Source: Flavobacteriales bacterium
Lineage (GTDB): Bacteria; Bacteroidota; Bacteroidia; Flavobacteriales_D; Sanyastnellaceae
Direction of reading: 5' to 3'
Length of the DNA stretch: 55,610 nt
Assembly: GCA_015663855.1 (NCBI GenBank)
Contig: DQRJ01000006.1
Location: 1 to 55,610 of the forward strand
The first letter of the stretch is position 1, and each line of letters begins with the position of its first letter. A model generated the notes under the pieces. That model searched no databases. It was given only the letters and a program-made list of their open reading frames with translations, and was not told the DNA's origin. Made by a program: the position numbers and the translations under genes. This document shows, in pieces, positions 3,007-54,471 of the stretch.

Positions 3007-3019
3007 TATTAAATAATTA

Positions 3020-4345: not shown

Positions 4346-4347
4346 AG

Positions 4348-31919: not shown

Positions 31920-31952
31920 GGGACAAAGGTATCAGTATATTTACAACCTACA

Positions 31953-32954
31953 ATGAGCAATACTCAAAAAATAACAAAGGGTCTATTGCACCTAATTCCA
32001 TGGGTGATTTTACTAATCGGTCCGTTTTCTAGCGTTTTCTCAGATCCTGAGATTACAACTGCTATTCAGATAAGGGCAGTAATCATTTTCCTCATTTTAA
32101 TTGGGTCATTTTACCTGAATTATTTGGTCCTAATCCCATTATTACTTTTAAAAAGTAAATTCACTGCTTATATAGTTTCTGTATTGTTAATGATGGTCGG
32201 GCTTGGCGCTTTTAATGCAATGTTCAATTGGACTTTAGGAGATTTGGCAATGTTCCGATTCGCTCCCGCTGCGGTAATGATGTTGACTATTTTCGGGGTT
32301 GCAGCAAGGATGACTAATCGATGGATGAGTCAGTCGGCAGCTAACAAGGAGATCGTTTTAGAGAAATTGAATACTGAGCTTGCTTTTCTTAAAAACCAAA
32401 TAAGTCCTCATTTTCTCTTTAACACTTTGAATAACATTTACTCCCTGACAGAAACAAATCCTGAGAAAGCGAGAGAGGTAACACACGGGTTGTCGAAGTT
32501 ATTGCGTTACTTACTTTATGAAAGTGAGAAGCACAAGATGGTGACGCTAGGACGAGAGGTGGCGTTCTTGAATACCTATATAGAGTTAATGAAGATTCGG
32601 TTGCCCGAAAATGTAGAGGTTAATTTCGATCACGGGTCCGAGCTCGATAACACCGAGCTCCCACCTTTGCTATTCATTCCTTTTGTAGAAAATGCATTTA
32701 AGCACGGGATTAGTTTACAAGAGGATTGTACCGTTAAAATTTCTTTGCAAAGAGTGGGGGGAAATATCGAGTTTTCGGTAATTAATTTGATCCCTGCACA
32801 TAAAGAGTCGGACGGGGTAAGTGGCGGTTTGGGATTAATAAATATTAAACGACGTCTAGAACTTCTTTTCGGAAATGATGGATATGAACTTAATATTCAC
32901 GAAAACGAACTTGCTTACGACGTGCAACTAAAAATCCCCGCCCGTGTCAATTAG
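31953..32954 (+). CDS. LytS/YehU-type sensor histidine kinase
   Basis: Multi-TM N-terminus, then FLKNQISPHFLFNTLNNIYSL (His_kinase/PF06580-type H-box) and an HATPase region (FVENAFKHG, GGLGLINIKRRLE). The start is moved to MSNTQK at 31953. Confidence 0.8.
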   Translation: MSNTQKITKGLLHLIPWVILLIGPFSSVFSDPEITTAIQIRAVIIFLILIGSFYLNYLVLIPLLLLKSKFTAYIVSVLLMMVGLGAFNAMFNWTLGDLAMFRFAPAAVMMLTIFGVAARMTNRWMSQSAANKEIVLEKLNTELAFLKNQISPHFLFNTLNNIYSLTETNPEKAREVTHGLSKLLRYLLYESEKHKMVTLGREVAFLNTYIELMKIRLPENVEVNFDHGSELDNTELPPLLFIPFVENAFKHGISLQEDCTVKISLQRVGGNIEFSVINLIPAHKESDGVSGGLGLINIKRRLELLFGNDGYELNIHENELAYDVQLKIPARVN

Positions 32955-33663
32955 ATGCATAGCCGTAGATGACGAGCCGCCAGCACTTCAGCTCATCAAG
33001 GGATACATAGAACGAACCCCTTTCCTAGAACTAGTGGGCGTATTTCACGACCCTCTCAAAGCTATTGCCGCCGTTAAGGAGCACGACATCAAGCTCATAT
33101 TTCTAGACATCCATATGCCGGGACTCACTGGGATGCAAGTCTCCCGCCTGCTACCCGAATCGTGCAAAGTGATTTTCGCAACGGCTTACGAAGATTACGC
33201 CCTCGAGAGCTACAGAGTGGCTGCGTTAGATTACTTAGTAAAACCATATAATTTCGAGGAATTCTCCTTGGCAGCAAAAAAAGCTAAAGACTATTTCGGT
33301 TTGGAGTTTAAAGGAGATAAACCTCATGCTTCGGGAAGAGCAAACTCCGAAAAAAACGAATTTATCTTCCTCAAAGCCGACTACAAACTTCACAAGGTCT
33401 ATTTCTCAAAAATCCTTTATATCGAGAACATCAAGGATTATGTGCGTATTTTCTTTGAGGATGGAAGTAAACTAATGGTTCTAATGAGTTTAAAGTCACT
33501 CGAAGACATGTTACCCGAAGGATTTATGAAAGTCCACCGATCCTTCATCGTCAGATTAGAAACAGTGGAAGTTGTTGAGAGGGGCCGGATAGTTTACGGA
33601 GGTGTTTACGTACCTGTTTCCGACAGATATAAAGAGGAATTCCAACAGTTTTTACTTAGCTAG
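32944..33663 (+). CDS. LytTR-family response regulator
   Basis: Receiver domain (IAVDDEP...FLDIHMPGLTG...VKP) and a C-terminal LytTR DNA-binding domain (KVHRSFIV). It has a GTG start overlapping the kinase stop. Confidence 0.85.
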   Translation: MSIRCIAVDDEPPALQLIKGYIERTPFLELVGVFHDPLKAIAAVKEHDIKLIFLDIHMPGLTGMQVSRLLPESCKVIFATAYEDYALESYRVAALDYLVKPYNFEEFSLAAKKAKDYFGLEFKGDKPHASGRANSEKNEFIFLKADYKLHKVYFSKILYIENIKDYVRIFFEDGSKLMVLMSLKSLEDMLPEGFMKVHRSFIVRLETVEVVERGRIVYGGVYVPVSDRYKEEFQQFLLS

Positions 33664-33738
33664 GCCTAAACGTCGAGGAAAACCCCCCAAACGTAGATTC
33701 TTTTTTTTTCTCCTTTAACAATTGAGTTACTTCGAATT

Positions 33739-33990
33739 ATGAAACTCAATAGTAACGTAGCGGTCAGTGATTCTGGGTTCGTTTTTAACCCGGCCACAGG
33801 GAATTCTTACTCGGTAAATCCCGTAGGAGCACATATCATAAAACTTATTCAAGAGGATCTTACCGATTCTGAAATCGGGAAAAAGATTGCAGAGGAGTAC
33901 ATTATTGATGCAGCATCTGTAGAAATCGATTTATACGACTTCAAGCAACTGCTTGAAACGTATAAACTTTTGGCCCCAGTAGAGAAGTAA
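33739..33990 (+). CDS. PqqD-like small protein (peptide-chaperone / RRE-type fold)
   Basis: 83 aa. The pattern VFNPATGNSYSVNPVGAHIIKLIQEDLTDSEIGKKIAEEY..DAASVEIDLYDFKQLLETYKLL matches the PqqD winged-helix family (binding strand, helix, ...D...F...L....L). Confidence 0.6.
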   Translation: MKLNSNVAVSDSGFVFNPATGNSYSVNPVGAHIIKLIQEDLTDSEIGKKIAEEYIIDAASVEIDLYDFKQLLETYKLLAPVEK

Positions 33991-34002
33991 ATTATCTGAA
34001 AC

Positions 34003-35055
34003 ATGTCTACAAAACCCACCTACACAATTGCCGTAACAGGCCTTAATGCTATCGATAGCCCAGGATCTGGGCTCGCTGTCATAAAGGGTCTGCGAGAAGC
34101 AGAGGGTTTTGATGTACGGATTATCGGATTCGCATACGAGAGCATGGAACCAGGTGTGTACATGCATCACCTCGTTGACAAGAGCTACCAAGTGCCCTAC
34201 CCTAATGCTGGGCAAGACGTTTTATATGAGAGAATTAGCTACATTAATTCTGTGGAGTCCCTCGACATTATCATTCCTAATTACGATGCCGAGCTTTTCA
34301 ACTACATACGCATTCAACAGAAGTTGAAGACTGAGCTTGATATTAGCATGGTTCTTCCTACAGAGGATCAGTTTGAGGAACGCCAAAAAAGTAATTTATC
34401 CGATTTCGGCGAAAAACACGGTATTCAAGTTCCATCAGCGGAGATGGCTTTCTCTATGGAAGAAGCTAAGGAGATAGCAAGTGATTTGGGCTTCCCTGTG
34501 GTCGTAAAGGGTAAGTTCTACGATGCGAAAATCGCTTACACCCCTACACAAGTATCACAATACTTCTCGCAAATTGCTGCAGAATGGGGCATGCCGATTA
34601 TCATTCAGGAATTCATCAACGGACATGAAGTGAATGTTTGCGGGATAGGAAACGGAAAAGGCGACACTCTGGGAGCTGTACCTATGAAGAAGATTTATGT
34701 GACTGACAAAGGAAAGGCATGGTCTGGAGTGACTCTTGAGGACAATGAACTACTCGAAATTTGTGAGGATGCTGTCGCTTCTACAAAGTGGAATGGTCCC
34801 TTTGAGTTCGAGTTTATGAAGACCTCGGAGGACAAATACTACCTACTTGAAATCAACCCCCGCTTCCCGGCTTGGTGTTATCTAGCTGTAGGTGCAGGCC
34901 AAAACCAAACAGCTACTCTCATCGAACTCGCTACAGGGATAAAAGCGGAAAAGCTACCCGCTTATGTTGTGGGTAAGATGTTTATTCGTCATTCAGACGA
35001 TATGGTAATTGATATGAAAGAATTTGAAACTATTTCGACAACAGGAGAATTATGA
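34003..35055 (+). CDS. ATP-grasp family ligase
   Basis: Pre-ATP-grasp N-terminal domain, FPVVVKGKFYDA, IIIQEFINGHEVNV and YLLEINPRFPAW (the Mg/ATP-binding E-x-N signature of ATP-grasp enzymes). Confidence 0.8.
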   Translation: MSTKPTYTIAVTGLNAIDSPGSGLAVIKGLREAEGFDVRIIGFAYESMEPGVYMHHLVDKSYQVPYPNAGQDVLYERISYINSVESLDIIIPNYDAELFNYIRIQQKLKTELDISMVLPTEDQFEERQKSNLSDFGEKHGIQVPSAEMAFSMEEAKEIASDLGFPVVVKGKFYDAKIAYTPTQVSQYFSQIAAEWGMPIIIQEFINGHEVNVCGIGNGKGDTLGAVPMKKIYVTDKGKAWSGVTLEDNELLEICEDAVASTKWNGPFEFEFMKTSEDKYYLLEINPRFPAWCYLAVGAGQNQTATLIELATGIKAEKLPAYVVGKMFIRHSDDMVIDMKEFETISTTGEL

Positions 35056-36413
35056 GTGATAAGAAAACATATGAACGTCCAGTAATTGTTCCGTTGAATA
35101 CTGGGCTTATGAATAAGTTCGGAACTAGAACTGAATATCAACCCGTTATTGATATTGATGGTAATCCCGTTAAGGATCTTCTCGCTAAGTACGGTTCTCC
35201 CCTATTCGTCTTGTCTGAAAGGAAGATTCGCGAGAACGTTCAATCTGCAAAGCGAATTTTCGAGACTCGTTACCCGAAAGTTCAGTTCGCTTGGTCTTAC
35301 AAGACGAACTATATAAATGCGGTATGTAACGTTTTCCACCAAGAGGGGGCTTGGGGAGAAGTGGTATCTCGTTTCGAGTACGACAAAGCAATCAAGAACG
35401 GCGTTCCTGCAGATAAGATCCTTTTCAACGGTCCCGATAAAAGCCGTGAAGATCTCGAGCTCGCAGTAAAAGGTAACTCACCTATTCATATCGACCATCT
35501 CGATGAACTTTACCTACTTACCGAGATCGCTACCGAGCAAAACGTGAAACCTCGAGTTGCCATTCGTGTAAACATGGATACCGGGATTTACCCGATGTGG
35601 GATAGGTTTGGATTTAACTATGAAAATGGCCAAGCCTGGAACGCCATTAATAAGATCATCGCAACGGACAAACTCAACCTAATCGGACTCCACTGTCACA
35701 TCGGTACTTTCATGCTTTCCGCCGAAGCTTACGGGGTGGCGGCATCTAAATTAGCTGAGCTTGCGATTAGCATTAAGAAGCATCACGGAAAAAGCATCAC
35801 CTATATCGATTTAGGGGGTGGATTTGCATCTACGAACACTTTAAAAGGATCGTACGGCATAGGCGCAGACGCGATTCCGTCTATGAGTCAGTATGCCGAA
35901 TCGATTACTACAGCGCTTCTAAATGCCGGTTTCGATAACGACGATTTACCTTGGCTATATCTCGAGACTGGACGAGCTTTAATTGACGATGCCGGATTCC
36001 TATTAGGAACTGTTCTTTCGAACAAGCGTCTAAGTGACGGACGAAGAGCTACGATTCTAGATTTCGGGCTCAACCTCATGTTTACTTCGTTCTGGTACGA
36101 TCATAAAATTTCGCCAGCTCAACCTTTCGGCTCTCATACTGAGGATTGCGTCTTATACGGCCCGCTCTGTATGAACATAGACATAGTTCGTCAGCACATC
36201 ACATTACCGCCCTTAAATCCTGGCGACCACGTAGTGGCTCACCATATGGGTGCTTACAACATAACTCAGAGTATGCAATTCATCTCTTTAAGACCTGCAA
36301 TTGTGATGATAGACATGGACGGAAAGCCGCACATTATTCGTAAGAAAGAGATGTTAAGTACACTCGAGAAAGACGAAGTGATGCCTGAATACTTAGACAC
36401 ATTTAATCTATAG
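35052..36413 (+). CDS. PLP-dependent decarboxylase, Orn/DAP/Arg (group IV, alanine-racemase-fold) family
   Basis: FAWSYKTNY (PLP-lysine region), GLHCHIGT, IDLGGGF, LETGRALI, YGPLCMNID (active-site Cys) and MGAYN. The start has an ATGA overlap with the ATP-grasp stop. Confidence 0.8.
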   Translation: MSDKKTYERPVIVPLNTGLMNKFGTRTEYQPVIDIDGNPVKDLLAKYGSPLFVLSERKIRENVQSAKRIFETRYPKVQFAWSYKTNYINAVCNVFHQEGAWGEVVSRFEYDKAIKNGVPADKILFNGPDKSREDLELAVKGNSPIHIDHLDELYLLTEIATEQNVKPRVAIRVNMDTGIYPMWDRFGFNYENGQAWNAINKIIATDKLNLIGLHCHIGTFMLSAEAYGVAASKLAELAISIKKHHGKSITYIDLGGGFASTNTLKGSYGIGADAIPSMSQYAESITTALLNAGFDNDDLPWLYLETGRALIDDAGFLLGTVLSNKRLSDGRRATILDFGLNLMFTSFWYDHKISPAQPFGSHTEDCVLYGPLCMNIDIVRQHITLPPLNPGDHVVAHHMGAYNITQSMQFISLRPAIVMIDMDGKPHIIRKKEMLSTLEKDEVMPEYLDTFNL

Positions 36414-36421
36414 TCCCGGCT

Positions 36422-38605
36422 TTGCTTAAGCAAACAAAACACATATTAACACTCTCGTTTTGCGGGCTTACTGCTAGCTACGCTCAGGTATTCTTCTCGA
36501 ATAGCCGGGCGTTTGGCGCGCTATTAATGCTCGTGACTTTCGCTGATGTCGGTGTGGGACTATCTGGTATAGGGGCTGTTTTGCTTGTCCAATTAACTGC
36601 TCTATTATTCAACTTCAACGAGCAGTTGATAAAGGACGGGGCGTACACCTATAACGCACTAATGGTGGGGCTCGCGCTTGGTGGAATCTACGAACTCAAC
36701 TTATCGCTAGCCCTTGTCTTAACGTCGGTTTCTATACTCACGTTCTTTATCACGCTTTGGTTTATGAACGTTCTAGGAGCGAAGGCGCTACCTTATCTGA
36801 GCATTCCGTTCTTACTTGGGGTTTGGGTTATACTATTAGGAGCAGGTAATTTCACTGCGCTTGAATTGCACGATAAAGGTGTATTCTCAATGTCAGAATG
36901 GTGGCCCGGACTTTATTCCGGAACCACCGAGTTTATAGGGACCCTTCCCTTCCATAACGCGATATTTCTGTACCTCAGATCTCTTGGGGCAATATTATTC
37001 CAATACAGCGATGTAGCTGGAATCATAATCTCTATAGGACTTATTCTTCATTCACGTATATCATTCGTACTCAGTATATTCGGGTTCACTATCGGATATC
37101 TGTTTTACCATTATATGGAGGGTGACTTTTCGCAGTTAATCTACTCATACATAGGATTTAACTTCATTTTAACCGCTATAGCACTGGGAGGATTTTTCGT
37201 AGTGCCTTCGCGCCGTTCTTTCGCGCAGCTCATCTTTACTATTCCTTTAATAACGCTATTAATATCCGCACTTCACTCGCTATTCAGCATTTTCGAGCTA
37301 CCACTTTATTCCTTACCGTTTAACATAGTCGTACTCCTCTTCCTCTCCGCTATGTATTTGAGGTCCAAATCTTCCGGCCTCAACCTGGTAACCATTCAAC
37401 AATTCTCCCCCGAAAAACACCACTACAGTTACACTGATAATCTCGAGCGTTTCAGACGAGATACTTATGTGCATATAGCTCTCCCTATTATAGGTGAGTG
37501 GAATGTTTCTCAAGGATACGATGGAGATATTACACATCGAGGTGAATGGAAGCACGCATTGGATTTCGATGTCAGAGACATAGACGGGAGCACCTACCAA
37601 ATGCCTGGCGGCAAGAAAGAAGATTTTTTCTGTTTTGACCTACCTGTTATAGCTCCAGCAGACGGTAAGGTGGTGAAAGTGGAAAAGGGGATTCACGATA
37701 ACGAGGTAGGAAATGTCAATCTGGAGGACAATTGGGGGAATGCGGTGGTAATTAAACACGGCGACCATCTGTACAGTAAATTTTCGCATCTCAAGAAAAA
37801 CACTCTCAAGCTAGAGGTGGGTGATACTGTGAAGAAAGGTGAAGTTATTGCCAAATGTGGCAGTTCTGGCCGATCGCCTGAACCGCATTTGCACTTCCAA
37901 CTTCAATCCACTCCCTATATCGGTTCGAAGACACTTTATCACCCTATTAGTTATTTCGTAAGTAAGAAAAACGGGAAAAACACATTCCATGCTTTCGAAA
38001 TTCCGAAAGAGGGCGAGACCGTGTGTAACATGAAAACTTCGAAAGCTCTTACAAAGGCATTCAGTTTCATTCCAGGCAAGAAATTCAACATCGAAAGCAC
38101 CGAAAACGACAAGACAGAAACTTGGGAAGTTCTCAGTTCTTACACAAACGAAACCTATATCTGGTGTCCCACTTCAGGTTCGACAGCTTGGTTTAAGAAT
38201 AACAACAACGTATTCTACTTCACAGCTTTTAAGGGCAACAAAAATTCTTCGCTCTACAAATTCTTCCTCGGAGCGTACAAAGTTCCTCTAGGATATTATG
38301 AAGAAATGGCACTAAAAGACAATATGAATATCATGTCGGTAGTAAATCCCTTCATAAGATTTATCCACGACTTTACAGCGCCCTTCTTCCATTACATCAA
38401 AGCACGTTATTCATTCCGTTTCACAGAAACAGATAACGAGCACGATCCATACATTATTCAGTTTGAGTCACAAATAACTGAAAGCGTGTTTGGTCTAAAA
38501 CGCGCGACTTCAAAATTCCACATAAAACTGTGGGACAATAAAATAGCACTTACATTTGCAACGAAAAATAAAAAGCACACAATAACATGCGTACCAATTT
38601 CTTAA
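36422..38605 (+). CDS. Fusion protein: urea-transporter (UT)-like ~10-TM channel domain, M23 metallopeptidase domain, and an unknown ~220-aa C-terminal domain
   Basis: N-terminal SYAQVFFSNSRAFGALLML and YTYNALMVGLALGG resemble UT-family signatures. The central part GNAVVIKHGDHLYSKFSHLKKN...GEVIAKCGSSGRSPEPHLHFQL is an M23 (LytM-type) core with HxH. It has a TTG start 8 nt after the decarboxylase stop. Confidence 0.7.
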   Translation: MLKQTKHILTLSFCGLTASYAQVFFSNSRAFGALLMLVTFADVGVGLSGIGAVLLVQLTALLFNFNEQLIKDGAYTYNALMVGLALGGIYELNLSLALVLTSVSILTFFITLWFMNVLGAKALPYLSIPFLLGVWVILLGAGNFTALELHDKGVFSMSEWWPGLYSGTTEFIGTLPFHNAIFLYLRSLGAILFQYSDVAGIIISIGLILHSRISFVLSIFGFTIGYLFYHYMEGDFSQLIYSYIGFNFILTAIALGGFFVVPSRRSFAQLIFTIPLITLLISALHSLFSIFELPLYSLPFNIVVLLFLSAMYLRSKSSGLNLVTIQQFSPEKHHYSYTDNLERFRRDTYVHIALPIIGEWNVSQGYDGDITHRGEWKHALDFDVRDIDGSTYQMPGGKKEDFFCFDLPVIAPADGKVVKVEKGIHDNEVGNVNLEDNWGNAVVIKHGDHLYSKFSHLKKNTLKLEVGDTVKKGEVIAKCGSSGRSPEPHLHFQLQSTPYIGSKTLYHPISYFVSKKNGKNTFHAFEIPKEGETVCNMKTSKALTKAFSFIPGKKFNIESTENDKTETWEVLSSYTNETYIWCPTSGSTAWFKNNNNVFYFTAFKGNKNSSLYKFFLGAYKVPLGYYEEMALKDNMNIMSVVNPFIRFIHDFTAPFFHYIKARYSFRFTETDNEHDPYIIQFESQITESVFGLKRATSKFHIKLWDNKIALTFATKNKKHTITCVPIS

Positions 38606-40128
38606 TACTAACCGTGGTTGCCATAGCAAACCTATGCTCTATCAATACTGCCAACGCGCAGGATGAAGTGGCCACGACGAACCTTGCGGTTGACTCATTA
38701 ACTTATATCTCAGTTGACAGCACTAGCTGGGCTCTCTATCAATTAGAAGAGTGGAATGATTTGAGAAAATTCGGCGCCCTAGCTGAAGAAGGTGGGTTCG
38801 AAACCTACTTCTTAAATCTTAGACTTGGAATTGCTAATTTTAAAACTGGCCATTTCCATAAAGCTGAGGCTTTTCTGTTGAAAGCTTATGACCAAAACCC
38901 TGCTGCTCTCACTGCAAAAGAGTATTTATTTTGGATCTACTCGCTATCGGGGAACGTCAATGCTGCTTCTGACATGTACGATATGCTAAGCGAAGAGCTT
39001 AAGAGCGAAATCGATTTCGATTTAAGCCAAGGACTAAAAAGCGTTTATGCTGAAGCTGGTCCTATGCTATCGGATAACGAAGATGTAGCTGGAACGTCTC
39101 TTTACGGGAATGTTGGAGCTCGTTACCGCCTTAACGATAAGCTAAGTATCTACTCAAGCTACACTTATCTTGAAAATGGTAATATGTCTTGGGGTGGTTA
39201 TTCTCAACATCAGTTGTCTGTAACTCCTACTTTGCTTCTTGATAATGGTTGGTTGCTATCTGCTGGGTTGAATTACTTTAATTACTCAAGGGATATTTAC
39301 CAGTCTTTAGACCAAACAATAACAAGTTCATTTCAATACACTGAAGAAGGGATTTGGTTTGATGAAGCAACAGGAACAGAGTACACTTGGGAAACACCTG
39401 AAACAATCACTTCAACTGTTGTTTACAACGACACATACGAGGGTACATTATCTGAAAATTCCGTGGGCATCAACTTGAACGCTACGAAGACTTTTAGAGA
39501 CTTTAGCATCTCTCCACACGCTGTGTTTTATGGAGAATTCCTCAATACTAACTACGTGAAAACGAACTCAGACATCTACGATGTAAACACGTCTTGGGAC
39601 TACACAGATTACTTTTTCACAGGGTTTTATGTATCAACAGATAGCACACCGGGATCTGTCGACACGACATATACATTGACTACCACTGAGCAAATCGATA
39701 CATCGATGTTTATTTACTACATGCAAGTAGGTACATCTTTTGACTACACATACCGCCTCAACGAATCAACTTCACTGACTCTTGGAGCAGAGGTCACAGC
39801 ACTTATTAATGGAGATAGCTTACAGGATATTTCTAATTCAATGAAATTCATCTACACTCCTTACTTGGCTATTAAAGCTGGAGATAAGTTCGGAATCAGT
39901 GCATACTACACGTCTAAAGGGAACTATCCAGTTTCTATGTTCGGAGGATCTAAAATGTTAAACGGTTATGATGCCATTAACTCTAGAATTAGTGTTACAG
40001 CTAAATACGATCTCAATGATAGATTTTCAATCTACGCAACTGGAATGATGGACGAAATAGAAGATGGCGTTTCTCTTTCTACATACAATAACTACGCAAT
40101 CCTAACAGGTCTAAACATTAAACTATGA
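38587..40128 (+). CDS. Exported protein: N-terminal TPR-like head plus predicted outer-membrane beta-barrel
   Basis: Signal peptide ending NAQ. A TPR-like segment (FLNLRLGIANFKTGHFHKAEAFLLKAYDQNP) is followed by ~380 aa of Tyr/Thr/Ser-rich alternating strands (SIYSSYTYLE, LLSAGLNYFNY, ISVTAKYDLNDRFSIYATG). There is a 19-nt overlap with the upstream gene. Confidence 0.55.
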   Translation: MRTNFLILTVVAIANLCSINTANAQDEVATTNLAVDSLTYISVDSTSWALYQLEEWNDLRKFGALAEEGGFETYFLNLRLGIANFKTGHFHKAEAFLLKAYDQNPAALTAKEYLFWIYSLSGNVNAASDMYDMLSEELKSEIDFDLSQGLKSVYAEAGPMLSDNEDVAGTSLYGNVGARYRLNDKLSIYSSYTYLENGNMSWGGYSQHQLSVTPTLLLDNGWLLSAGLNYFNYSRDIYQSLDQTITSSFQYTEEGIWFDEATGTEYTWETPETITSTVVYNDTYEGTLSENSVGINLNATKTFRDFSISPHAVFYGEFLNTNYVKTNSDIYDVNTSWDYTDYFFTGFYVSTDSTPGSVDTTYTLTTTEQIDTSMFIYYMQVGTSFDYTYRLNESTSLTLGAEVTALINGDSLQDISNSMKFIYTPYLAIKAGDKFGISAYYTSKGNYPVSMFGGSKMLNGYDAINSRISVTAKYDLNDRFSIYATGMMDEIEDGVSLSTYNNYAILTGLNIKL

Positions 40129-40754
40129 AGCAGTTATTCTCAATCTCGACGACACTACTCGTCATCGTTTTTCTTTCAGCTTTCAACACTCAGGCGAACG
40201 CGCAAAACGAAACTATAGATGCTTTCTCTTCAAGCTACACTTCAGAGACAGCTCAAGACTACAACGAAGCAATAAATGTTTTGACAGCGATCTACGACAA
40301 AGATTCGTACTCAATCAACTTGCGTCTTGGATGGTTAAATTACCTGAAAGGAGATCTCTCTACATCTCAGACTTATTACTCAAAAGCAATTAATCTTGAG
40401 CCATCTTCAATAGAAGCTCACTTAGGTTATGCTTATCCGACAGCTGCGATGGGCAACTGGAAAGACGTTCTAGAATCTTACCTAATGGTATTAGAAATAG
40501 ATCCTAACAACTCGCTCACGAACTATCGTACAGCTTCCATCTACCACTACTCCTATGGAGAAAATGATAAGGCTCTCGAGTACATTAATAAAGTACTTAG
40601 CAACGCCCCATTCGATTACAACAGTAACTTTCTCAAGGCATCTATAGAATTAAACTTAGGAAACATATCCGAAGCTCTAAACTCTATTACAACTGCACTT
40701 GAGGCATCACCGTCTTCAATAGAGGCGTTGAAAATTTACGATGCGGTAAAGTAA
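40125..40754 (+). CDS. Secreted TPR-repeat protein
   Basis: Signal peptide ending ANAQ, with repeated 34-aa TPR-like units (INLRLGWLNYLKGDLSTSQTYYSKAINLEPSSIEA...). There is an ATGA overlap with the upstream gene. Confidence 0.65.
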   Translation: MKQLFSISTTLLVIVFLSAFNTQANAQNETIDAFSSSYTSETAQDYNEAINVLTAIYDKDSYSINLRLGWLNYLKGDLSTSQTYYSKAINLEPSSIEAHLGYAYPTAAMGNWKDVLESYLMVLEIDPNNSLTNYRTASIYHYSYGENDKALEYINKVLSNAPFDYNSNFLKASIELNLGNISEALNSITTALEASPSSIEALKIYDAVK

Positions 40755-43630: not shown

Positions 43631-44500
43631 ATGACAACATCATACTATATCCGAAACCACTCCAATTCAAGTTCATCATCTATTTATGTAAGGATAAATG
43701 AAGGACGATATAAGCAGTTCAGATTTGCTACTGGTTATGATATAAATAAGGATACGTCTTGGAAGAAAAAAACACTCAAAGTGTCAGAACAAATAGTATT
43801 GAACCATTTGATTTAATCAACCTTCAGTTAAAGCGTCTTATAGCATTTATAGAGACTCAATACGTCTTTGCTAAATCTAAAGGTATTCCAAGGAGTAAAC
43901 TATTCTATAAATCTATTGTTGAGCAGTTTCAACTTAGTGAAATGACCGTAAGTAGTGAGACTAAGTTGTTAACTGTTGGTGATGCTTTTCAACTTTACAT
44001 TGATGAAGCAAATAAAAATGGAATTCGACTTGCACCAATGACAATAAGGACTATTTCCTATTCATTTAATCACATAAAATACCTCAGGATGCATACTATC
44101 CTTATCTCTGAGCTGGACATGGATTGGTATTATGAGTTTATTAAACGTTCTGAACAATCAGGTAGAAATGGGGAGCCTTTAAGTATGAACTACATCAGCA
44201 CTCATATCAAGAAGATTAAAAGGGTTCTGAGGTATGCTGAAGACAAAGATCACGCAGTTAACAGCTCGTACAAATCAATGTCATTTAAAGCGCCTCAAGA
44301 AACCGCATCAGAGATATACCTCAATGAAGAAGAACTAAGTCAAATTAGAGCGCTTGAATTAAGTCATGAACAGCACTCACTTGCTCTCACAAGGGATCTA
44401 TTTATAATTGGTGCATATAGTGGATTAAGGGGTGTCTGACTACAATAGACTAACTAATGACAATCTTCATACTCACAACGGGTCTGAGATGCTTGAGGTG
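43631..44500 (+). pseudogene. Tyrosine recombinase / integrase pseudogene (Bacteroidota Arm-binding plus SAM-like N-terminal domains; catalytic domain lost)
   Basis: YIRNHSN....IYVRINEGRYKQFRFATGY.I....W is an Arm-type N-terminus. There is a frameshift in an A7 run (43766-43772) and a second frameshift at a G4 run (~44431). After that the shifted frame reads GLR-VSDYNRLTNDNLHTHNGSEMLEVR. Homology ends near 44500, before the H/R/Y catalytic residues. Confidence 0.75.
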
Positions 44501-47486: not shown

Positions 47487-47563
47487 TGGTGATCCCACAG
47501 GGACTCGAACCCCGAACCGCCTCCTTAGAAGGGAGGTGCTCTATCCAGTTGAGCTATGAGACC
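47487..47563 (-). tRNA. tRNA-Arg(TCT), CCA encoded
   Basis: Reverse complement reads GGTCTCATAGCTCAACTGGATAGAGCACCTCCCTTCTAAGGAGGCGGTTCGGGGTTCGAGTCCCTGTGGGATCACCA. The cloverleaf folds, with anticodon stem CCTCC/GGAGG and loop CTTCTAA. Confidence 0.9.
47489..47504. repeat. 16-nt att-like core inside the tRNA-Arg 3' end
   Basis: Identical to 43463-43478. Confidence 0.7.
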
Positions 47564-48420: not shown

Positions 48421-48502
48421 GGAGGGATGGCAGAGTGGTAATGCAGCAGATTGCTAATTTGTGACCGGTTTCGGTTCCTGAGTTCGAGTCTCAGTTCCTC
48501 CG
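48421..48502 (+). tRNA. tRNA-Ser(GCT), class II with long variable arm
   Basis: GGAGGGATGGCAGAGTGGTAATGC..., anticodon loop TTGCTAA, variable arm GACCGGTTTCGGTTC, T-arm CTGAGTTCGAGTCTCAG, and acceptor 3' strand TTCCTCC. Confidence 0.85.
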
Positions 48503-48617: not shown

Positions 48618-48692
48618 CGGGGCGTGGCCCAGCCCGGTTAAGGCGCCTGGTTTGGGACCAGGAGATCGCAGGTTCGAATCCTGCCGCCCCGA
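48618..48692 (+). tRNA. tRNA-Pro(TGG)
   Basis: CGGGGCGTGGCCCAGCCCGGTTAAGGCGCCTGGTTTGGGACCAGGAGATCGCAGGTTCGAATCCTGCCGCCCCGA, with anticodon stem CCTGG/CCAGG and loop TTTGGGA. Confidence 0.9.
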
Positions 48693-48968: not shown

Positions 48969-49763
48969 ATGAAAACATTATTTACTAGTCTTCTTGTAGT
49001 TGCAGCATCTTTCGGCACTTTAGCCCAAACCTCTCTTACACAAGCTGTTGATTTCACCGTAACATTCACGGACGGGGAACAGTTTAATCTCTTTGATAAG
49101 CTTGCTGAAGGGAAGCACGTAGTTATCGATTTCTTCTTTACTACTTGTGGACCTTGCCAAGACAACCAACCTTCTTACACTGGAGCTTTCCAAAACTTCG
49201 GTTGTAATAGCGGAGATATTTTCTTCCTCTCTCTAGAGTCAACTGTAGGCGATGCTGAAACAATCGCTTACGAAGAGACTTTCGCAGGCGACAACGCTCC
49301 TCCTGCTGCTTCAGGAACTGATGGAGACGGAATCGAAGCTACCGCTTTATACGGAATAGGCGCATTCCCTACCTTTATCCTTATCGCACCTGACGGAACG
49401 ATTTTAGAACAGGATATGTGGCCGTTAACTAACGGTGCAGATACTTTCACAGACTACCTTTCTGGTGGTCATGGCCTCAACCTTCAGCCCTGTACGTCTG
49501 AAATTACAACTGCAGATGCTTCAGAGGTGGAAGTAAACATCTACCCTAACCCGGCTACAGATAACGTAACTATTGATTTGGGCTCTGTTTCTGGAACAGC
49601 CCTCGTTTGTATCTACAATATCGTAGGAGAGAAAGTTGCATCAGCTTCTACAGATAATGCTATCGTTAAATTCGACGTTGCCGAATTGCCTGTTGGAAAC
49701 TACATCGCGAAAATTATCGGAACGAATCAATCTACACAGAGACAATTCTCCGTAATACACTAG
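48969..49763 (+). CDS. Thioredoxin-fold (TlpA/redoxin-like) protein with T9SS C-terminal sorting domain
   Basis: Signal peptide, the CGPC active site (FFFTTCGPCQ) and a C-terminal VNIYPNPATDNVTIDL...GNYIAKI T9SS CTD. Confidence 0.75.
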   Translation: MKTLFTSLLVVAASFGTLAQTSLTQAVDFTVTFTDGEQFNLFDKLAEGKHVVIDFFFTTCGPCQDNQPSYTGAFQNFGCNSGDIFFLSLESTVGDAETIAYEETFAGDNAPPAASGTDGDGIEATALYGIGAFPTFILIAPDGTILEQDMWPLTNGADTFTDYLSGGHGLNLQPCTSEITTADASEVEVNIYPNPATDNVTIDLGSVSGTALVCIYNIVGEKVASASTDNAIVKFDVAELPVGNYIAKIIGTNQSTQRQFSVIH

Positions 49764-49823: not shown

Positions 49824-50615
49824 TTACTCAAGAATCATCTGCGAAGAGTGTGCGCCAACTTTTACGGTATAAATACCTCTTGCATAAGCGCTAACATCTA
49901 TAGTCACCTGCTCCTCAAAAGTTGAGTAAACTTTGCTTCCGAGAGTGTTGAAAATCGTTACCCTCTCTTTTCCAGGATTTTTAATGGTTACCTGTGAAGA
50001 TGCGGGGTTAGGGAAAAGTTTGAAGCTAAGCTCTGTACCTACACCTCCTACCGCATCTGGAGAACTACAATTACACTCTGCATCGTAGACCTCGTCCGTA
50101 GTAGCCGGATCTCCATCATCGCAAGTCATTCCTTCAAACGCACAACTCCCATCATCCACAGTAGCATCCGCATTAAAATTACACGCTACCGCATCCATAC
50201 ATCCTTGAACGTCTCCTCCTCCTGCGACAACAGTCAAAGAGGCAACCATCCCATTGGCAGCATGGCCATAACCAGAACAATCATAATTATATACTCCCTC
50301 AATAGTAAATGTATGGGTACCTATACACACTCCCATTTTTGAACCCTCAATCAGAGGAAAGTGGAATGATTCTGGATTTCCGAAAGACATGCTAGTGAGA
50401 ACACTTATATCTCCGTTTGCATTGTGAGTTCCCTCGATATTCACCCAACCTACTGTAGTTCCCACAGTTATTTCTAGTTCAGATGGTGCAAAGTATACGT
50501 CTCCTGTTTCGATGAGGACATCCGCTCCTGGACAGATATCTGCTTGGGCTTGAGAAGTGCTCGTAAAAGCAAGAGAAGTTGTTAACGCGAGAAAACTAAG
50601 TAGAATATTTTTCAT
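49824..50615 (-). CDS. Type-1 (blue) copper cupredoxin-domain protein with one Cys module and a T9SS C-terminal sorting domain
   Basis: Signal peptide and plastocyanin-like ligand pattern (H in EGTHN, then C-x4-H-x4-M in YDCSGYGHAANGM). It also has the module GCMDAVACNFNADATVDDGSCAF and the CTD FKLFPNPASSQVTIKN...GIYTVKV. Confidence 0.7.
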   Translation of the reverse strand: MKNILLSFLALTTSLAFTSTSQAQADICPGADVLIETGDVYFAPSELEITVGTTVGWVNIEGTHNANGDISVLTSMSFGNPESFHFPLIEGSKMGVCIGTHTFTIEGVYNYDCSGYGHAANGMVASLTVVAGGGDVQGCMDAVACNFNADATVDDGSCAFEGMTCDDGDPATTDEVYDAECNCSSPDAVGGVGTELSFKLFPNPASSQVTIKNPGKERVTIFNTLGSKVYSTFEEQVTIDVSAYARGIYTVKVGAHSSQMILE

Positions 50616-50832: not shown

Positions 50833-53800
50833 TTGTTTCTAATCTTACCAAATACCGATTTTCTAAAGTACCTGCGTTACAAGACAGCCGTTAAACCGCT
50901 GACCCTCAGTGTAATGCTTGTGTTTACGGTACTTTTAACTAGTAATGTATTTGGTCAATATCAATACACGTTAACTATTGAGTCTAGCCCCGCTTTAACT
51001 CCTGAACTTACAACGTATAGATTCTACGTTGACATGCAAGACCCTACCGATAGGATGAGTGCCGTTTACGGCAATGATACTTTTCCGTTAGAAGTAAATG
51101 CACCTGACGGAGTTTTCAACTCCGCATTCAACTCAAGCTGGAATGCGTCGGGGATTATACCTGCTTTTATTGCAGTGTTTCCCGAGATGGTAGATGACAC
51201 CTATGCCACCATCGGATTAGACATGGCTGCTTCTGAATCTGGAATTGCAAATGCCGCCGACCCTTCTTTAGTACAAGATCCTAGCCAGCCGATTTCTACA
51301 TTCTTCGATACTGATGGGGCTACTCAATTGCTTTCTAACACTTTCACCGGTAGTTCTTGGTATGTATTGAATGGCTCTGACAATGCTTTGCCTGACGCGA
51401 ACCTAAGGGTGTTAATCCTTCAGGTGACTACCTCTAATACTGGTGGTATCTCAGGAAGATTGAATGTCCAGTTATTTCCTCTTGGCTATGGACCAAACCA
51501 AATCAATACTATTTATTTATTCGATGGAGAAGGCACCTTCTATCATTACGACGGGTTTATTCACGGATGTATGGATCCTCTTGCCTGTAATTTTATGCCT
51601 GAAGCTGAGGTAGATGAGTATTGCGATTACTTTTCTTGTCTCCCTATAGGTTGTACTGATTCTACGGCTTGTAACTACGACCCTTTAGCCGATTTTGAGG
51701 ATGGTACTTGTGAGTATGCTTTAGCCGGATATAATTGTGATGGTTCGTGTTTTAACGATAGTGATGGAGATGGGATATGTGATGTCGAGGAGATTGCGGG
51801 ATGTCAGGACTCCGAGGCATGTAATTTCAATTCTCTCGCGACAGATTCCGACGGAAGTTGTGTTTATGCTGAGGTGGGGTATGATTGCCAAGGCATTTGC
51901 ATCCTCGATGAGAATGAAAATGGCGTGTGTGATTTTGAAGAAGTTTATGGGTGTAGTATTCCTACCGCTTGTAATTACAACCCTGCAACTACTGTCGATG
52001 ATGGAAGTTGTGAGTTCGTCTCGTGCTTAGTTCCGGGCTGCGTAGATATCGAAGCTTGTAACTTCGATGCTGGTGCAGAAATCGATGATGGCAGTTGTGA
52101 ATACCCTCCTACAGGTTATGACTGCCTCGGGGCTTGCTTGCTCGACACCGATGGCGATGGCGTATGCGACCCCTTTGAAGTTTTAGGGTGTACTAACTCG
52201 ACAGCGTTAAACTTCGACCCATCGGCAACCGATGACGACGGTTCGTGTACATATCCGCCCGACCCAATTCTCCCTCCTGAAGAATTCGACTTTACCCCTA
52301 CTCCTTTCGCCGGAACTATGCTTGGCAATATCACTCTAGACGGAGCGGCTTGTGAAGAAATAGACTGGGTAGCAGCGTTCGACCCTGATGGAAACTGTGC
52401 TGGTTCTGCTCCACTCTTTATGGATGGAGGAACGGCTTACATTATTTTGACTATTTATGGCGATGAGTCTTTGACTACATTAATAGACGAAGGACTTTCA
52501 GACGGCGATTATTTCACCCTGAAGTTATTCGACGCAAGCACCCTAAATATTTATGAGTACTATGAGGATACGGGAGTAGTGGAGTTCCAAGGGTGGTCAA
52601 ACACGAATGGCGCACCTATGCCTGGATATGCGAACCCTAATGTGAATTACGACTTCCTTTCTATAGCTTACGTTCCAGAATGTCTTGATCCTCTAGCATG
52701 TAATTTCGACCCGTCTTCAACATCGAATCTAAATTGTATTTATCCAGACACGGGATATGATTGTGACGGAATTTGTCTCAACGATTTCGATAACGACGGG
52801 GTATGTGACGAGTTCGAGATAGAGGGATGTACAGATCTTTCAGCATGTAATTTCGACTCTTTAGCTACGAATGACGACGGCACCTGTGCTACCCTTGACG
52901 AATGTGGCATATGCGGAGGAACGGGCATTCCCGATGGCAACTGTGATTGTGCCGGAAACCAACTCGATGCCCTTGGCGTTTGTGGTGGAACTTGCTTAGT
53001 AGATGCTGACGCAGACGGAATTTGTGATGACGTTGACGACTGCGTAGGTACTCTCGACGAGTGCAGCGTATGTAACGGCCCAGGTGCGATTTACGAATGT
53101 GGATGTTCAGATATCCCAGCAGGCGATTGTGACTGTAACGGAAACCAGCTCGACGCTCTCGGAGTCTGTGGTGGTTCCTGCGTGGCCGATGCCGACGGAG
53201 ATGGAATCTGTGACGACGTGGACGACTGCATAGGAGCACTCGATGAGTGTGGAGTTTGTAACGGACCTGGTGCGATATACGAGTGTGGATGTTCTGATAT
53301 CCCAGCTGGAGATTGCGACTGTAGTGGAAATCAACTTGATGTATTAGGTGTTTGTGGTGGCTCGTGCCAGGCAGATGCTGACGTAGACGGAATTTGTGAC
53401 GACGTGGACGAATGTGTAGGCGCTCTCGATGAGTGTGGAGTTTGTAACGGCCCGGGAGCAGTATATGAGTGTGGATGTTCTGACATTCCTACGGGAGACT
53501 GTGATTGCGCAGGAAACCAGCTCGACGCCCTCGGAGTTTGTGGAGGGGATTGCCTTAACGACACAGACGGTGATGGGATTTGTGATACCGACGAAATTCC
53601 TGGATGCACAGACTTAACAGCTTGCAACTTCAACCCTCTCGCAACGGATGAAGATGGGACTTGTGCTGTAATCGATGAATGTGGAATTTGTGGCGGTTTA
53701 GGAATTCCAGAAGGTGATTGCGATTGTAACGGAAACCAATTAGATGCACTTGGAATATGTGGAGGCGACTGCATCGAAGACCTCGATTTAGATGGAGTAT

Positions 53801-54471
53801 GCGATGTAGATGAGGTTTTAGGGTGTGATGACGAGACAGCTATTAACTTCAACCCAGAAGCTACCGAGAATGATGGGAACTGCAACTACGACACGTTAGG
53901 ACCAGAAACATTTACCTACACCCCTACTCCTACGTCGGGAACTTTATACGGAACTATAAAGGTTGACGGGATAATGGCAAACGGGCTAGACTGGATTGCC
54001 GCTTTCGATGAGAGCGGGAATTGCGCTGGAGCGAATTCTATATTGATGAATGGAGGAGTGGCGTACGCGAACCTTACTATTTATGGGGACGACGGTACCA
54101 CGAACTTAATTGACGAAGGGATGAACGTCGGGGATAGCTTCCAGCTCGTGCTATACGATGCAAGCGAAGACGTATATATTACGTATCTCGACGATCTCGG
54201 AAGCGACCTCCTTTCAGGGTGGGAAAACACCTACGGAGCTCCTATACCTGCTTGGAATAACCCTCTATACGTATTCGATTTTATCACTTCCGTTCCTTGC
54301 CCCGGCGACTATAACGAAGACGGACAAGTGCAACTTACCGACCTCCTTGACTTCTTAACTGCATATGGATCCTCGTGTACTGGATGTCCACAAGATTCAA
54401 ATAACGACGGACTCGTACAACTAACCGACCTACTAAATTTCCTTGGACTTTACGGCAATAACTGCCCTTAA
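50833..54471 (+). CDS. Giant secreted Cys-rich modular protein with a C-terminal dockerin-like pair (start codon uncertain; TTG at 50833)
   Basis: 1212 aa with a signal-like KPLTLSVMLVFTVLLTSNVFGQ and about 93 Cys by hand count. There are ~10 GC.D..ACN(F/Y)...DDGSC modules interleaved with Ca-binding-like D.D.DG.CD loops. There are three-plus CG.CGG/CNGPG...GDCDC.GNQLD repeats. There are two ~130-aa paralogous domains. The protein ends with two DxNxDGxVQLTDLLxFL segments. Confidence 0.75.
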   Translation: MFLILPNTDFLKYLRYKTAVKPLTLSVMLVFTVLLTSNVFGQYQYTLTIESSPALTPELTTYRFYVDMQDPTDRMSAVYGNDTFPLEVNAPDGVFNSAFNSSWNASGIIPAFIAVFPEMVDDTYATIGLDMAASESGIANAADPSLVQDPSQPISTFFDTDGATQLLSNTFTGSSWYVLNGSDNALPDANLRVLILQVTTSNTGGISGRLNVQLFPLGYGPNQINTIYLFDGEGTFYHYDGFIHGCMDPLACNFMPEAEVDEYCDYFSCLPIGCTDSTACNYDPLADFEDGTCEYALAGYNCDGSCFNDSDGDGICDVEEIAGCQDSEACNFNSLATDSDGSCVYAEVGYDCQGICILDENENGVCDFEEVYGCSIPTACNYNPATTVDDGSCEFVSCLVPGCVDIEACNFDAGAEIDDGSCEYPPTGYDCLGACLLDTDGDGVCDPFEVLGCTNSTALNFDPSATDDDGSCTYPPDPILPPEEFDFTPTPFAGTMLGNITLDGAACEEIDWVAAFDPDGNCAGSAPLFMDGGTAYIILTIYGDESLTTLIDEGLSDGDYFTLKLFDASTLNIYEYYEDTGVVEFQGWSNTNGAPMPGYANPNVNYDFLSIAYVPECLDPLACNFDPSSTSNLNCIYPDTGYDCDGICLNDFDNDGVCDEFEIEGCTDLSACNFDSLATNDDGTCATLDECGICGGTGIPDGNCDCAGNQLDALGVCGGTCLVDADADGICDDVDDCVGTLDECSVCNGPGAIYECGCSDIPAGDCDCNGNQLDALGVCGGSCVADADGDGICDDVDDCIGALDECGVCNGPGAIYECGCSDIPAGDCDCSGNQLDVLGVCGGSCQADADVDGICDDVDECVGALDECGVCNGPGAVYECGCSDIPTGDCDCAGNQLDALGVCGGDCLNDTDGDGICDTDEIPGCTDLTACNFNPLATDEDGTCAVIDECGICGGLGIPEGDCDCNGNQLDALGICGGDCIEDLDLDGVCDVDEVLGCDDETAINFNPEATENDGNCNYDTLGPETFTYTPTPTSGTLYGTIKVDGIMANGLDWIAAFDESGNCAGANSILMNGGVAYANLTIYGDDGTTNLIDEGMNVGDSFQLVLYDASEDVYITYLDDLGSDLLSGWENTYGAPIPAWNNPLYVFDFITSVPCPGDYNEDGQVQLTDLLDFLTAYGSSCTGCPQDSNNDGLVQLTDLLNFLGLYGNNCP
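52897..53562. repeat. In-frame 186-nt (62-codon) tandem repeats, ~3.5 copies
   Basis: The motif TGTTC.GA.AT.CC...GG.GA.TG.GA.TG recurs at 53103, 53289 and 53475 (period 186). The protein units GDCDC.GNQLDALGVCGGSC.ADADGDGICDDVDDC.GALDECGVCNGPGAIYECGCSDIPA are nearly identical. Confidence 0.85.

Follow-up and report, generated by a model that had tools for sequence, protein, structure and literature searches.

A cassette of six genes in a Flavobacteriales genome encodes what may be an unrecognised small-molecule system. The DNA analysed (the window) is a stretch of 55,610 nucleotides (nt), positions 1 to 55,610 of contig DQRJ01000006.1 in GenBank assembly GCA_015663855.1. The cassette occupies positions 33739-40754, and encodes a PqqD-family protein, an ATP-grasp ligase, a pyridoxal phosphate (PLP)-dependent decarboxylase, a fusion of a urea transporter (UT) pore with an M23 metallopeptidase, and two secreted proteins. 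No curated family, and no paper found, assigns the cassette a pathway. Conservation of gene content and order nevertheless indicates that the six genes make up one functional unit. We propose, with a probability of roughly 30%, a system linked to metal stress in which a small product is made by ligation and decarboxylation, then released and exported.

Composition and spread of the cassette

The features of the cassette, in window coordinates, are the following.

33739-33990, + strand: PqqD-family (RRE-type) protein, 83 residues; PF05402, 36.5 bits
34003-35055, + strand: ATP-grasp ligase, 350 residues; PF15632 and PF02655 above cut-offs
35052-36413, + strand: alanine-racemase-fold PLP decarboxylase, 453 residues; assigned by Pfam, closest solved structure FigC/FslC
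36422-38605, + strand: UT-M23 fusion gene, 727 residues; PF03253 and PF01551
36473-37351, + strand: UT pore domain, fusion residues 18-310; PF03253, 174.3 bits
37499-37909, + strand: M23 metallopeptidase domain, fusion residues about 360-496; PF01551, 68.3 bits
37907-38602, + strand: C-terminal domain of the fusion, 232 residues, mostly β-strand, without known family or fold
38587-40128, + strand: secreted 513-residue protein with a signal peptide, an N-terminal TPR region, and a β-rich C-terminal part, a possible outer-membrane barrel
40125-40754, + strand: secreted TPR protein, 209 residues; many TPR Pfam families; signal peptide ending ...ANA/QNE

The six open reading frames (ORFs) are packed on one strand. 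Gaps of 12 and 8 nt separate the first gene from the second and the third from the fourth, respectively; the other three junctions are overlaps, of 4 nt (ATGA) between genes two and three, 19 nt between genes four and five, and 4 nt between genes five and six. An earlier note on this DNA had described this packing along with three translated motifs (EINPRFPAW, WSYKTNY, and YGPLCMNID). Re-reading of the sequence reproduces the junctions exactly and locates every motif in the translations. Moreover, Pfam bears out the domain calls made there: PqqD; ATP-grasp; ornithine/diaminopimelate/arginine decarboxylase; UT plus M23; and TPR.

Other searches add little. None of the six proteins reaches any curated NCBIfam cut-off, and the PADLOC models for anti-phage defence give zero matches among them. 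An Rfam scan of the window places no riboswitch or leader RNA at the cassette, and finds only three tRNAs elsewhere. Promoter and terminator scans return counts equal to those of shuffled sequence, and so are uninformative. Literature searches on the domain set, on the HMA-AraC regulators described below, and on annotated gene names found no paper describing the cassette. Nor was any close homolog found with an assigned pathway that explains all six genes, a finding that would have undone the earlier proposal.

Homologs are abundant. More than 2,800 homologs of the UT-M23 fusion were scored, and tblastn confirmed at least 548 cassette loci in a collection holding one genome per species. One of the carriers, the Bacteroidetes bacterium UKL13-3 (CP012155, locus L078), can be cultured. 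Metagenomes contain about 575 further loci, some of them outside the Bacteroidota. Two sets were analysed: 80 loci fetched from the confirmed genome loci (set 1), and 80 metagenome loci (set 2); a second scan was seeded with remote relatives. All six genes stand in the same order at 57 of the 60 evaluable genome loci in set 1, and tblastn still detects the PqqD gene in two of the three exceptions (59/60). The tight junctions also are kept, such that the UT-M23 gene overlaps the next gene in 72 of 75 loci. The genes flanking the cassette in set 1 vary from locus to locus. Thus, the six genes do co-occur in related genomes, as the earlier view of them as one unit demands.

In remote relatives, whose fusion proteins share 29-35% identity with the UT-M23 protein, the order PqqD, ATP-grasp, decarboxylase, and UT-M23 is unchanged. 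Contigs from these clades have up to 72.5% G+C, and the named relatives are Persicimonas sp. and a Deltaproteobacteria bacterium. This spread beyond the Bacteroidota, into Myxococcota/deltaproteobacterial genomes, had been missed. The downstream genes are rearranged in the remote clades: a TPR protein of about 215 residues comes first, followed by either a 271-residue barrel-like protein or a 535-residue all-TPR lipoprotein. What is universal, therefore, is the set of the first four genes together with one or more periplasmic TPR proteins.

One flavobacterial lineage (loci L008 and L164-L166) lacks the genes for the PqqD-like protein, the ATP-grasp ligase, and the decarboxylase; a leucyl-tRNA synthetase gene lies upstream in place of the three. 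The TPR gene in this lineage is split into pieces of 67 and 121 residues. The fusion protein is damaged as well. One version (P0005) has lost pore residues 124-128, part of the first pore motif. The 656-residue variants (P0059-P0074) have suffered an in-frame loss of UT residues 246-299, comprising two transmembrane segments and the second pore motif, together with loss of M23 residues 373-384, including the otherwise invariant D381. The pattern suggests that the envelope half has decayed step by step. Because the envelope part decays where the enzymes are lost, the lineage argues that the pore and the peptidase serve the product of the cytoplasmic enzymes.

The encoded proteins

The decarboxylase contains both domains of its family, Orn_Arg_deC_N (PF02784, 108.9 bits) and Orn_DAP_Arg_deC (PF00278, 46.2 bits). 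It also has the PLP lysine (K84) and the catalytic cysteine (C373), each invariant in 122 orthologs, and so belongs to the alanine-racemase-fold family. Among solved structures the best match is FigC (7kh2, E 1e-53), followed by an archaeal diaminopimelate decarboxylase (DAPDC; 1twi, 1e-39) and BtrK (1e-24); SbnH (6knh) also is matched. FigC, SbnH, AcsE, MccE, and BtrK form one clade whose members act on conjugated or carrier-bound amino acids (PMC7857480). By analogy with this clade, ligation followed by decarboxylation, as first suggested in the earlier note, would be the most reasonable chemistry for the cassette.

The 122 orthologs comprise 72 of the Bacteroidota type and 50 remote ones. 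Throughout, residues K84, C373-M374-N375-I376-D377, T345, W348, and Q406 are invariant, and F344 and F347 nearly so. Two of these positions correspond to the distal substrate ligands of DAPDC: T345 replaces the arginine of the N-D-x-x-R-P helix, and M374 the glutamate of the C-E-S loop. Two others correspond to H357 and R387, the citrate-binding residues of FigC (PMC7857480), which are replaced by I376 and Q406, respectively. Two known identities were considered and rejected: LysA (TIGR01048, 217.9 bits against a cut-off of 297.9; distal Arg and Glu absent) and FslC/FigC (NF041039, 219.3 bits against a cut-off of 500; H357 and R387 absent). Invariant residues that match neither enzyme point to a distinct subtype with a hydrophobic, uncharged pocket, one that would accept the same substrate across phyla.

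The decarboxylase also bears a conserved N-terminal extension, KYERPxI..G(L/F)xNKFG (residues 6-24; window 35067-35123). The extension lies outside the FigC alignment and at the very edge of the DAPDC alignment, yet is kept even in remote clades (it is seen, for example, at L095, L115, and L142). One possibility is that it serves the PqqD-like protein as a docking peptide.

The ATP-grasp ligase exceeds the gathering thresholds of two families (PF15632, 36.7 versus 29.1 bits; PF02655, 31.1 versus 23.2), which places it in the superfamily. Its motif G(L/I)NAxDSPGxG is invariant. The best NCBIfam match, the 'CPS-like' model PRK12767, scores only 75 bits against a cut-off of 390. Searches of the PDB, with the sequence and with a 25-sequence profile, retrieved only remote matches: carbamoyl phosphate synthetase (CPS), 2pn1, biotin carboxylase, and PurK. 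By these comparisons, the ligase is remote from all characterised members.

The 83-residue protein falls within the PqqD/RRE family (gathering threshold 23.4 bits for PF05402), although the NCBIfam subtype models (lasso, ScmD, HPr-rel-A, and WgkC) all score far below their cut-offs. Its N-terminal core, SDSGFxFNPxTGDSxSxNPxG, is conserved, whereas its C-terminal tail is variable. This protein had been proposed to be a carrier or a recognition subunit. The variable tails argue against a carrier of the LysW or BtrI type, and rule out a LysW-like carrier tail; therefore, a role as recognition or adaptor subunit is more likely.

Clustering of small ORFs (12-79 residues) over the 80 genome loci found only one that is conserved, the PqqD gene itself. 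The 35 gaps between regulator and PqqD genes (median 132 nt) contain no conserved small ORF, and ORF clustering over the 80 metagenome loci revealed no extra conserved gene of at least 70 residues. In the window, the gaps flanking the cassette are 75 nt upstream and 17 nt downstream. The earlier note's list of missing functions therefore stands: Pfam finds no IucA/IucC, radical-SAM, or nonribosomal peptide synthetase (NRPS) domain in the six proteins, and the loci hold no conserved precursor ORF. In consequence, the loci examined lack the precursor-peptide gene, in or beside the cluster, that defines a cluster for ribosomally synthesised and post-translationally modified peptides. They likewise do not resemble clusters for NRPS-independent siderophores (NIS), since no IucA/IucC domain occurs in the six proteins and a TonB-dependent receptor gene adjoins only one of 80 loci. 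A precursor may, of course, be encoded elsewhere in the genome.

The pore domain of the fusion protein is a full-length member of its family: the PF03253 match covers profile positions 6-290 of 292, and the domain aligns to residues 14-310 of the 340 in the Desulfovibrio UT (3k3f). Both L(S/T)xPF pore motifs are conserved. The score against the Yut equivalog model (TIGR03441) is 102.6, below the cut-off of 274.6, and the fusion gene never adjoins urease genes in the loci examined.

The fusion protein has neither a signal peptide nor any hydrophobic segment after about residue 310. The segment that follows the last transmembrane helix carries about 6.0 Lys plus Arg residues per sequence, compared to about 0.1-0.2 in the two outward loops before it. 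In UT proteins, the N- and C-termini both lie on the cytoplasmic side. From the complete UT fold, the absence of an additional transmembrane segment, the positive-inside charges, and the known disposition of UT termini, the M23 and C-terminal domains are predicted to be cytoplasmic, at the inner side of the pore. This prediction contradicts the earlier assignment of the peptidase to an envelope module.

The M23 domain is a clear family member (the PF01551 cut-off is 28.7 bits). Residues H372, H446, H456, H489, and H491 are invariant (80/80), and D381 is present in 79 of 80 sequences; the His-to-Asp spacing is eight residues rather than HxxxD. Thus, the catalytic set appears to be intact. The 232-residue C-terminal domain is modelled with high confidence by AlphaFold (pLDDT 93.5). 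A profile of this domain matches no Pfam family and no PDB sequence, and a Foldseek search of the PDB with the model found nothing at E<=1e-3, only weak matches resembling fatty acid-binding protein (FABP) or LolA (TM<=0.47). At 50% identity (E<=1e-30), the module made up of the M23 and C-terminal domains falls into 595 clusters, and is found almost exclusively within the fusion of about 720 residues. No other architecture was found, the shorter matches looking like fragments. The database labels for the fusion, 'urea transporter' and 'peptidoglycan DD-metalloendopeptidase', are both probably misleading.

The fifth gene is present at its position in 75 of 80 loci. Its 513-residue product has a Sec-type signal peptide and, by profile search, a TPR region at about residues 60-125. 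The C-terminal portion, about 350 residues, is poorly conserved: word-based searches recover few homologs (one and three proteins); orthologs give sporadic porin or autotransporter Pfam matches; the Phage_OMP score is 24 against a cut-off of 27; and the AlphaFold model, built from a shallow alignment, is unreliable. The protein had been called a β-barrel with a signal peptide. The signal peptide is confirmed; the barrel, with its sporadic matches and a model of pLDDT 39, is putative, and is replaced in remote clades. The final gene does encode a TPR protein with a signal peptide, as stated earlier, and a TPR protein of about 200-220 residues follows the cassette in both locus sets.

Genomic setting

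The earlier note recognised the six-gene unit but missed its copper and heavy-metal context. An AraC-type regulator of about 196 residues is encoded directly upstream in 35 of 64 evaluable loci. Profile searches identify its N-terminal domain as heavy-metal-associated (HMA), with matches to the metal-binding domains of ATP7B and to CopZ. These HMA-AraC fusions appear to be an undescribed type of regulator. (The copy at L161, positions 6604-7209, has the sequence CDCC; most others retain only the second Cys of CxxC.) At some other loci, an extracytoplasmic function (ECF) sigma factor and an anti-sigma factor are encoded upstream, along with a Metal_resist protein.

Metal-related genes also interrupt the cassette. 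A multicopper oxidase with a type IX secretion system (T9SS) tail is encoded between the PqqD and ATP-grasp genes at L004 and L006, and SCO1 and YHYH proteins between the ATP-grasp and decarboxylase genes at L056. Four remote loci (L102, L106, L115, and L116) have Metal_resist and YHS proteins upstream of the cassette. L115 and L116 have in addition an upstream multicopper oxidase with a twin-arginine (TAT) signal, and L115 a P-type ATPase; a cation diffusion facilitator (CDF) transporter gene follows the cassette at L106 and L115. Overall, metal-homeostasis genes lie within 10 kb at 16 of the 80 loci in set 1 and seven of the 80 in set 2. Counting loci that have either such genes or the HMA-AraC regulator, the numbers are 44/80 and 14/80, respectively.

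Two further neighbours were noted. A Met-rich secreted protein (MMPSSM...MMIKM...GGMME) is encoded divergently upstream of the cassette at L043, L046, and L051, and a PilZ-domain protein just upstream of the PqqD gene at L106 (2570-2905).

The window itself has a different arrangement upstream.

31950-32954 (ORF as listed from 31776), + strand: LytS-type histidine kinase; His_kinase PF06580, 94.5 bits; candidate local regulator, outside the conserved core
32944-33663, + strand: LytTR response regulator; Pfam Response_reg and LytTR; candidate local regulator, outside the conserved core
33664-33738, + strand: presumed promoter region, the 75-nt gap 5' of the PqqD gene; too short for a precursor-peptide gene

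This kinase and regulator pair is found upstream only in the window, L002, and L017. The surroundings resemble a normal stretch of chromosome, with genes such as those for FtsK and GMP synthase and a stable G+C content, and there is no sign of a mobile island around the cassette within the window. On its 3' side, a 226-residue integrase fragment with only the SAM-like domain (43759-44439, + strand) lies a few kb from three tRNA genes (47490-47563, - strand; 48421-48502, + strand; and 48618-48692, + strand), and may be the remnant of an integrated element.

Two secreted proteins with T9SS tails, an AhpC/TSA-like redoxin (48969-49763, + strand) and a cupredoxin of the plastocyanin/azurin family (49824-50615, - strand), confirm the Bacteroidota host; they are the only copper-related genes near the cassette in the window. 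Elsewhere in the window, a 668-residue ORF (5894-7900, - strand) matches the DAP_epimerase, Lnb_N, and 5TMH_Lnb families of Pfam; it represents either a fusion of an unusual kind or a pair of genes run together in a single ORF. No Pfam match at E<=1e-5 was obtained for three adjacent ORFs of 441-518 residues (668-5904, - strand) or for one of 1212 residues (50833-54471, + strand).

A proposed mechanism and its rivals

The following model assigns a job to each part. The ATP-grasp ligase would form an amide bond that leaves one α-amino-acid end free, with the PqqD-like protein acting as its recognition or adaptor subunit. The decarboxylase, of the FigC/BtrK type, would then remove that α-carboxylate. 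Because the pocket is invariantly hydrophobic, the attached group would be neutral or hydrophobic, and neither citrate nor a second diaminopimelate centre. The intermediate would be carried on a peptide-like handle, proposed because no other model finds work for the RRE and the peptidase together. The UT pore, presumably of the trimer type, would carry the active M23 domain and the new β domain at its cytoplasmic mouth. There M23 would cut the small neutral product free beside the pore, through which it would exit passively. The periplasmic TPR proteins, along with the TPR/β-rich outer-membrane protein in Bacteroidota, would receive the product or pass it along. Expression probably is tied to copper or heavy-metal stress, such that the product would probably serve in metal buffering or detoxification.

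What the sequences show directly is the domain identities, the conserved synteny, the intact catalytic residues, a pocket unlike those of DAPDC and FigC, the metal-gene neighbourhoods, and the lineage with joint decay. We infer the rest: the topology and the sequence of steps, the handle, the release and export of the product, and the metal role. Several observations weigh against the model. Its main weakness is the missing handle: about 160 loci show no conserved gene for a precursor or scaffold, which is unusual for RRE-dependent pathways. The nearest relatives of the ATP-grasp ligase (CPS, biotin carboxylase, and PurK) activate bicarbonate, so carboxylation chemistry could be at work instead. 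Known UT pores pass only very small neutral amides, and it would be odd for a molecule of that kind to have its own outer-membrane partner. Moreover, the outer-membrane barrel is putative (pLDDT 39) and not universal. The metal link is a matter of gene neighbourhood alone: metal genes are near only 20% of loci in set 1 and 9% in set 2, counts made without a matched random-locus control; the HMA domain keeps one Cys of CxxC (NMVSxSC); and the window copy has a LytTR two-component system upstream, its sole metal-related neighbour being the cupredoxin 9 kb away. Finally, no literature or experiment was found that bears on any proposed step.

The main rival dispenses with the handle, and is a serious possibility if itself a doubtful one. 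In a free small-molecule route like those of FigA/FigC or SbnH, the ATP-grasp ligase would couple a free carboxylic acid to the amine on the side chain of free ornithine, lysine, diaminobutyrate, or diaminopropionate (or would join Glu or Asp to an amine). Free citrate or amino acids do serve as substrates for some ATP-grasp ligases, such as RIMKLB. The product, an N-acyl-diamine or an ω-amino-acid amide, would be a metallophore, a polyamine-like metabolite, or an osmolyte, and the PqqD-like protein and M23 would have only structural, regulatory, or trimming roles. This route accounts for the lack of a conserved precursor gene; it suits the decarboxylase, whose nearest solved relative uses a free small molecule; and a chelator would fit the metal context. 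However, it leaves the invariant cytoplasmic M23 domain and the conserved RRE jobless. The citrate-binding residues of FigC are absent, a charged chelator would not pass the UT pore, and the near-absence of TonB-dependent receptors, with no conserved uptake, makes a classical siderophore unlikely.

Three other explanations fit fewer parts, and are graded lower. Editing of peptidoglycan precursors is the best of them, though improbable. M23 and the lipid-binding-like domain would act on lipid- or UDP-linked stem peptides; the decarboxylase would convert peptide-bound meso-diaminopimelate, with its free D-centre, into lysine; and a Ddl-like ATP-grasp enzyme would add a residue, remodelling the wall in response to stress from metals or on the envelope. 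Peptidoglycan prototypes exist for all three enzyme families (Ddl, LysA, and MepM/Pgp3), loss of the distal charged ligands of DAPDC is what peptide-embedded diaminopimelate would need, and the C-terminal domain has its weak FABP/LolA-like similarity. That fold match is not significant, however, and the ATP-grasp ligase is not Ddl-like (E 6e-3, versus 4e-11 for CPS). The decarboxylase is nearer to FigC than to any DAPDC, the cassette is accessory (being lost in one lineage), and the UT pore, the PqqD-like protein, and the periplasmic TPR proteins would have no role.

Still less probable is that the PqqD-like protein itself is the handle, in analogy to BtrI and LysW. In this scheme an amino acid would be ligated to the acidic tail at its C-terminus and decarboxylated in place before M23 cut it off. 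Its 83 residues approach the size of BtrI (87 residues; PMC7857480), most tails contain Asp or Glu, and BtrK is homologous to the decarboxylase. But the tails vary in both length and sequence, some lacking an acidic end (for example, ...HKLINA at L034). Moreover, the protein has no motif of the phosphopantetheine or LysW type, and its conserved part is the canonical peptide-binding face of RREs.

An uptake system, in which the outer-membrane protein and the UT pore would import a small amide (urea or an analogue) for assimilation by the enzymes, perhaps through carboxylation of the CPS/PurK/biotin carboxylase kind, draws on the bidirectionality of UT channels and on the bicarbonate-activating relatives of the ligase, but is very improbable: the cassette has no urease, allophanate hydrolase, biotin-carrier, or amidase partner; the decarboxylase, RRE, and M23 domain would be without role; and the score of the UT domain falls well short of the Yut equivalog cut-off.

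Comparison with known systems helps to separate what is familiar in the proposed ligation, decarboxylation, and release from what is new. One close precedent is BtrI/BtrJ/BtrK, which makes the butirosin side chain in Bacillus circulans: it too has an ATP-grasp enzyme, a decarboxylase of the same clade, a partner of about 85 residues, and a ligate-then-decarboxylate logic. The partner in the cassette has the PqqD/RRE fold instead of being an acyl carrier protein, and the downstream Btr enzymes are lacking. The cassette also encodes a fusion of channel and peptidase as well as periplasmic TPR proteins, and it occurs in Gram-negative bacteria (Bacteroidota and Myxococcota) in a metal context.

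The FigA/FigC (FslA/FslC) rhizoferrin pathway, SbnH, and AcsE/PvsE likewise decarboxylate an amino acid once it is joined to another moiety, and have a link to metals. FigC and the cassette enzyme have the C-M-x-x-D loop in common, and both are without the distal Arg and Glu of DAPDC. The cassette differs from FigA/FigC in having an ATP-grasp ligase in place of the NIS (IucA/IucC) synthetase, and in lacking both an exporter of the major facilitator superfamily (MFS) and a conserved TonB receptor.

The pathways for pyrroloquinoline quinone (PQQ) and mycofactocin pair a PqqD-family chaperone with a dedicated peptidase that would excise the small product. The cassette contains no radical-SAM enzyme or precursor gene, and the peptidase that it encodes, of the M23 type, is part of a channel protein. 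An analogy for this fusion comes from the peptidase-containing ABC transporters (PCATs) and from prodrug-activating peptidases such as ClbP, in which a peptidase joined to an export route couples cleavage with export. The conduit in the cassette, in contrast, is an unenergised UT-type pore, and the peptidase is M23 and not C39 or S12.

Urea transporters (the Desulfovibrio protein dvUT, UT-B, and Yut) have the same full-length fold and both pore motifs; the cassette pore is distinguished by its fusion to M23 and a new domain, its score below the Yut cut-off, and its separation from urease genes. PgaA and BcsC, exporters that combine TPR and barrel, resemble the 513-residue protein (signal peptide, N-terminal TPR, and β-rich C-terminus) plus its separate TPR partner. 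The NCBIfam matches to these families, however, fall only on the TPR protein encoded at 40125-40754, far below cut-off, and the 513-residue protein matches no NCBIfam family. Moreover, the cassette has no glycosyltransferase or polymer synthase, and its putative barrel is replaced in remote clades.

The chemistry, then, probably belongs to a known kind: ligation, followed by decarboxylation of the conjugated amino acid. The novelty lies in the subtype of decarboxylase, in an RRE that has no accompanying precursor, in the predicted cytoplasmic position of an M23 domain on a UT pore together with a domain of no known fold, and in the metal context. In its fullest form, the proposal is of an unrecognised metal-stress-responsive system across Bacteroidota and Myxococcota-type lineages, in which a small amine or amide is built on a handle encoded outside the cluster by an RRE-guided ligase and a new decarboxylase subtype, is freed by the pore-fused M23, and exits via the pore; this fullest form is unlikely, and we offer it tentatively.

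The cassette is large in scale and ancient. If the proposal is true, it would reveal a new decarboxylase subtype for conjugated amino acids, the first M23 peptidase working at the cytoplasmic face of a UT pore, and an unrecognised metabolite for copper and heavy-metal handling in abundant environmental bacteria. In its fullest form, the system would represent both a new class of metabolite that protects against metals and a new principle of export, in which a peptidase works with a passive pore. Even if the mechanism is wrong, the finding has practical value, as the cassette is small enough for heterologous expression and metabolomics.

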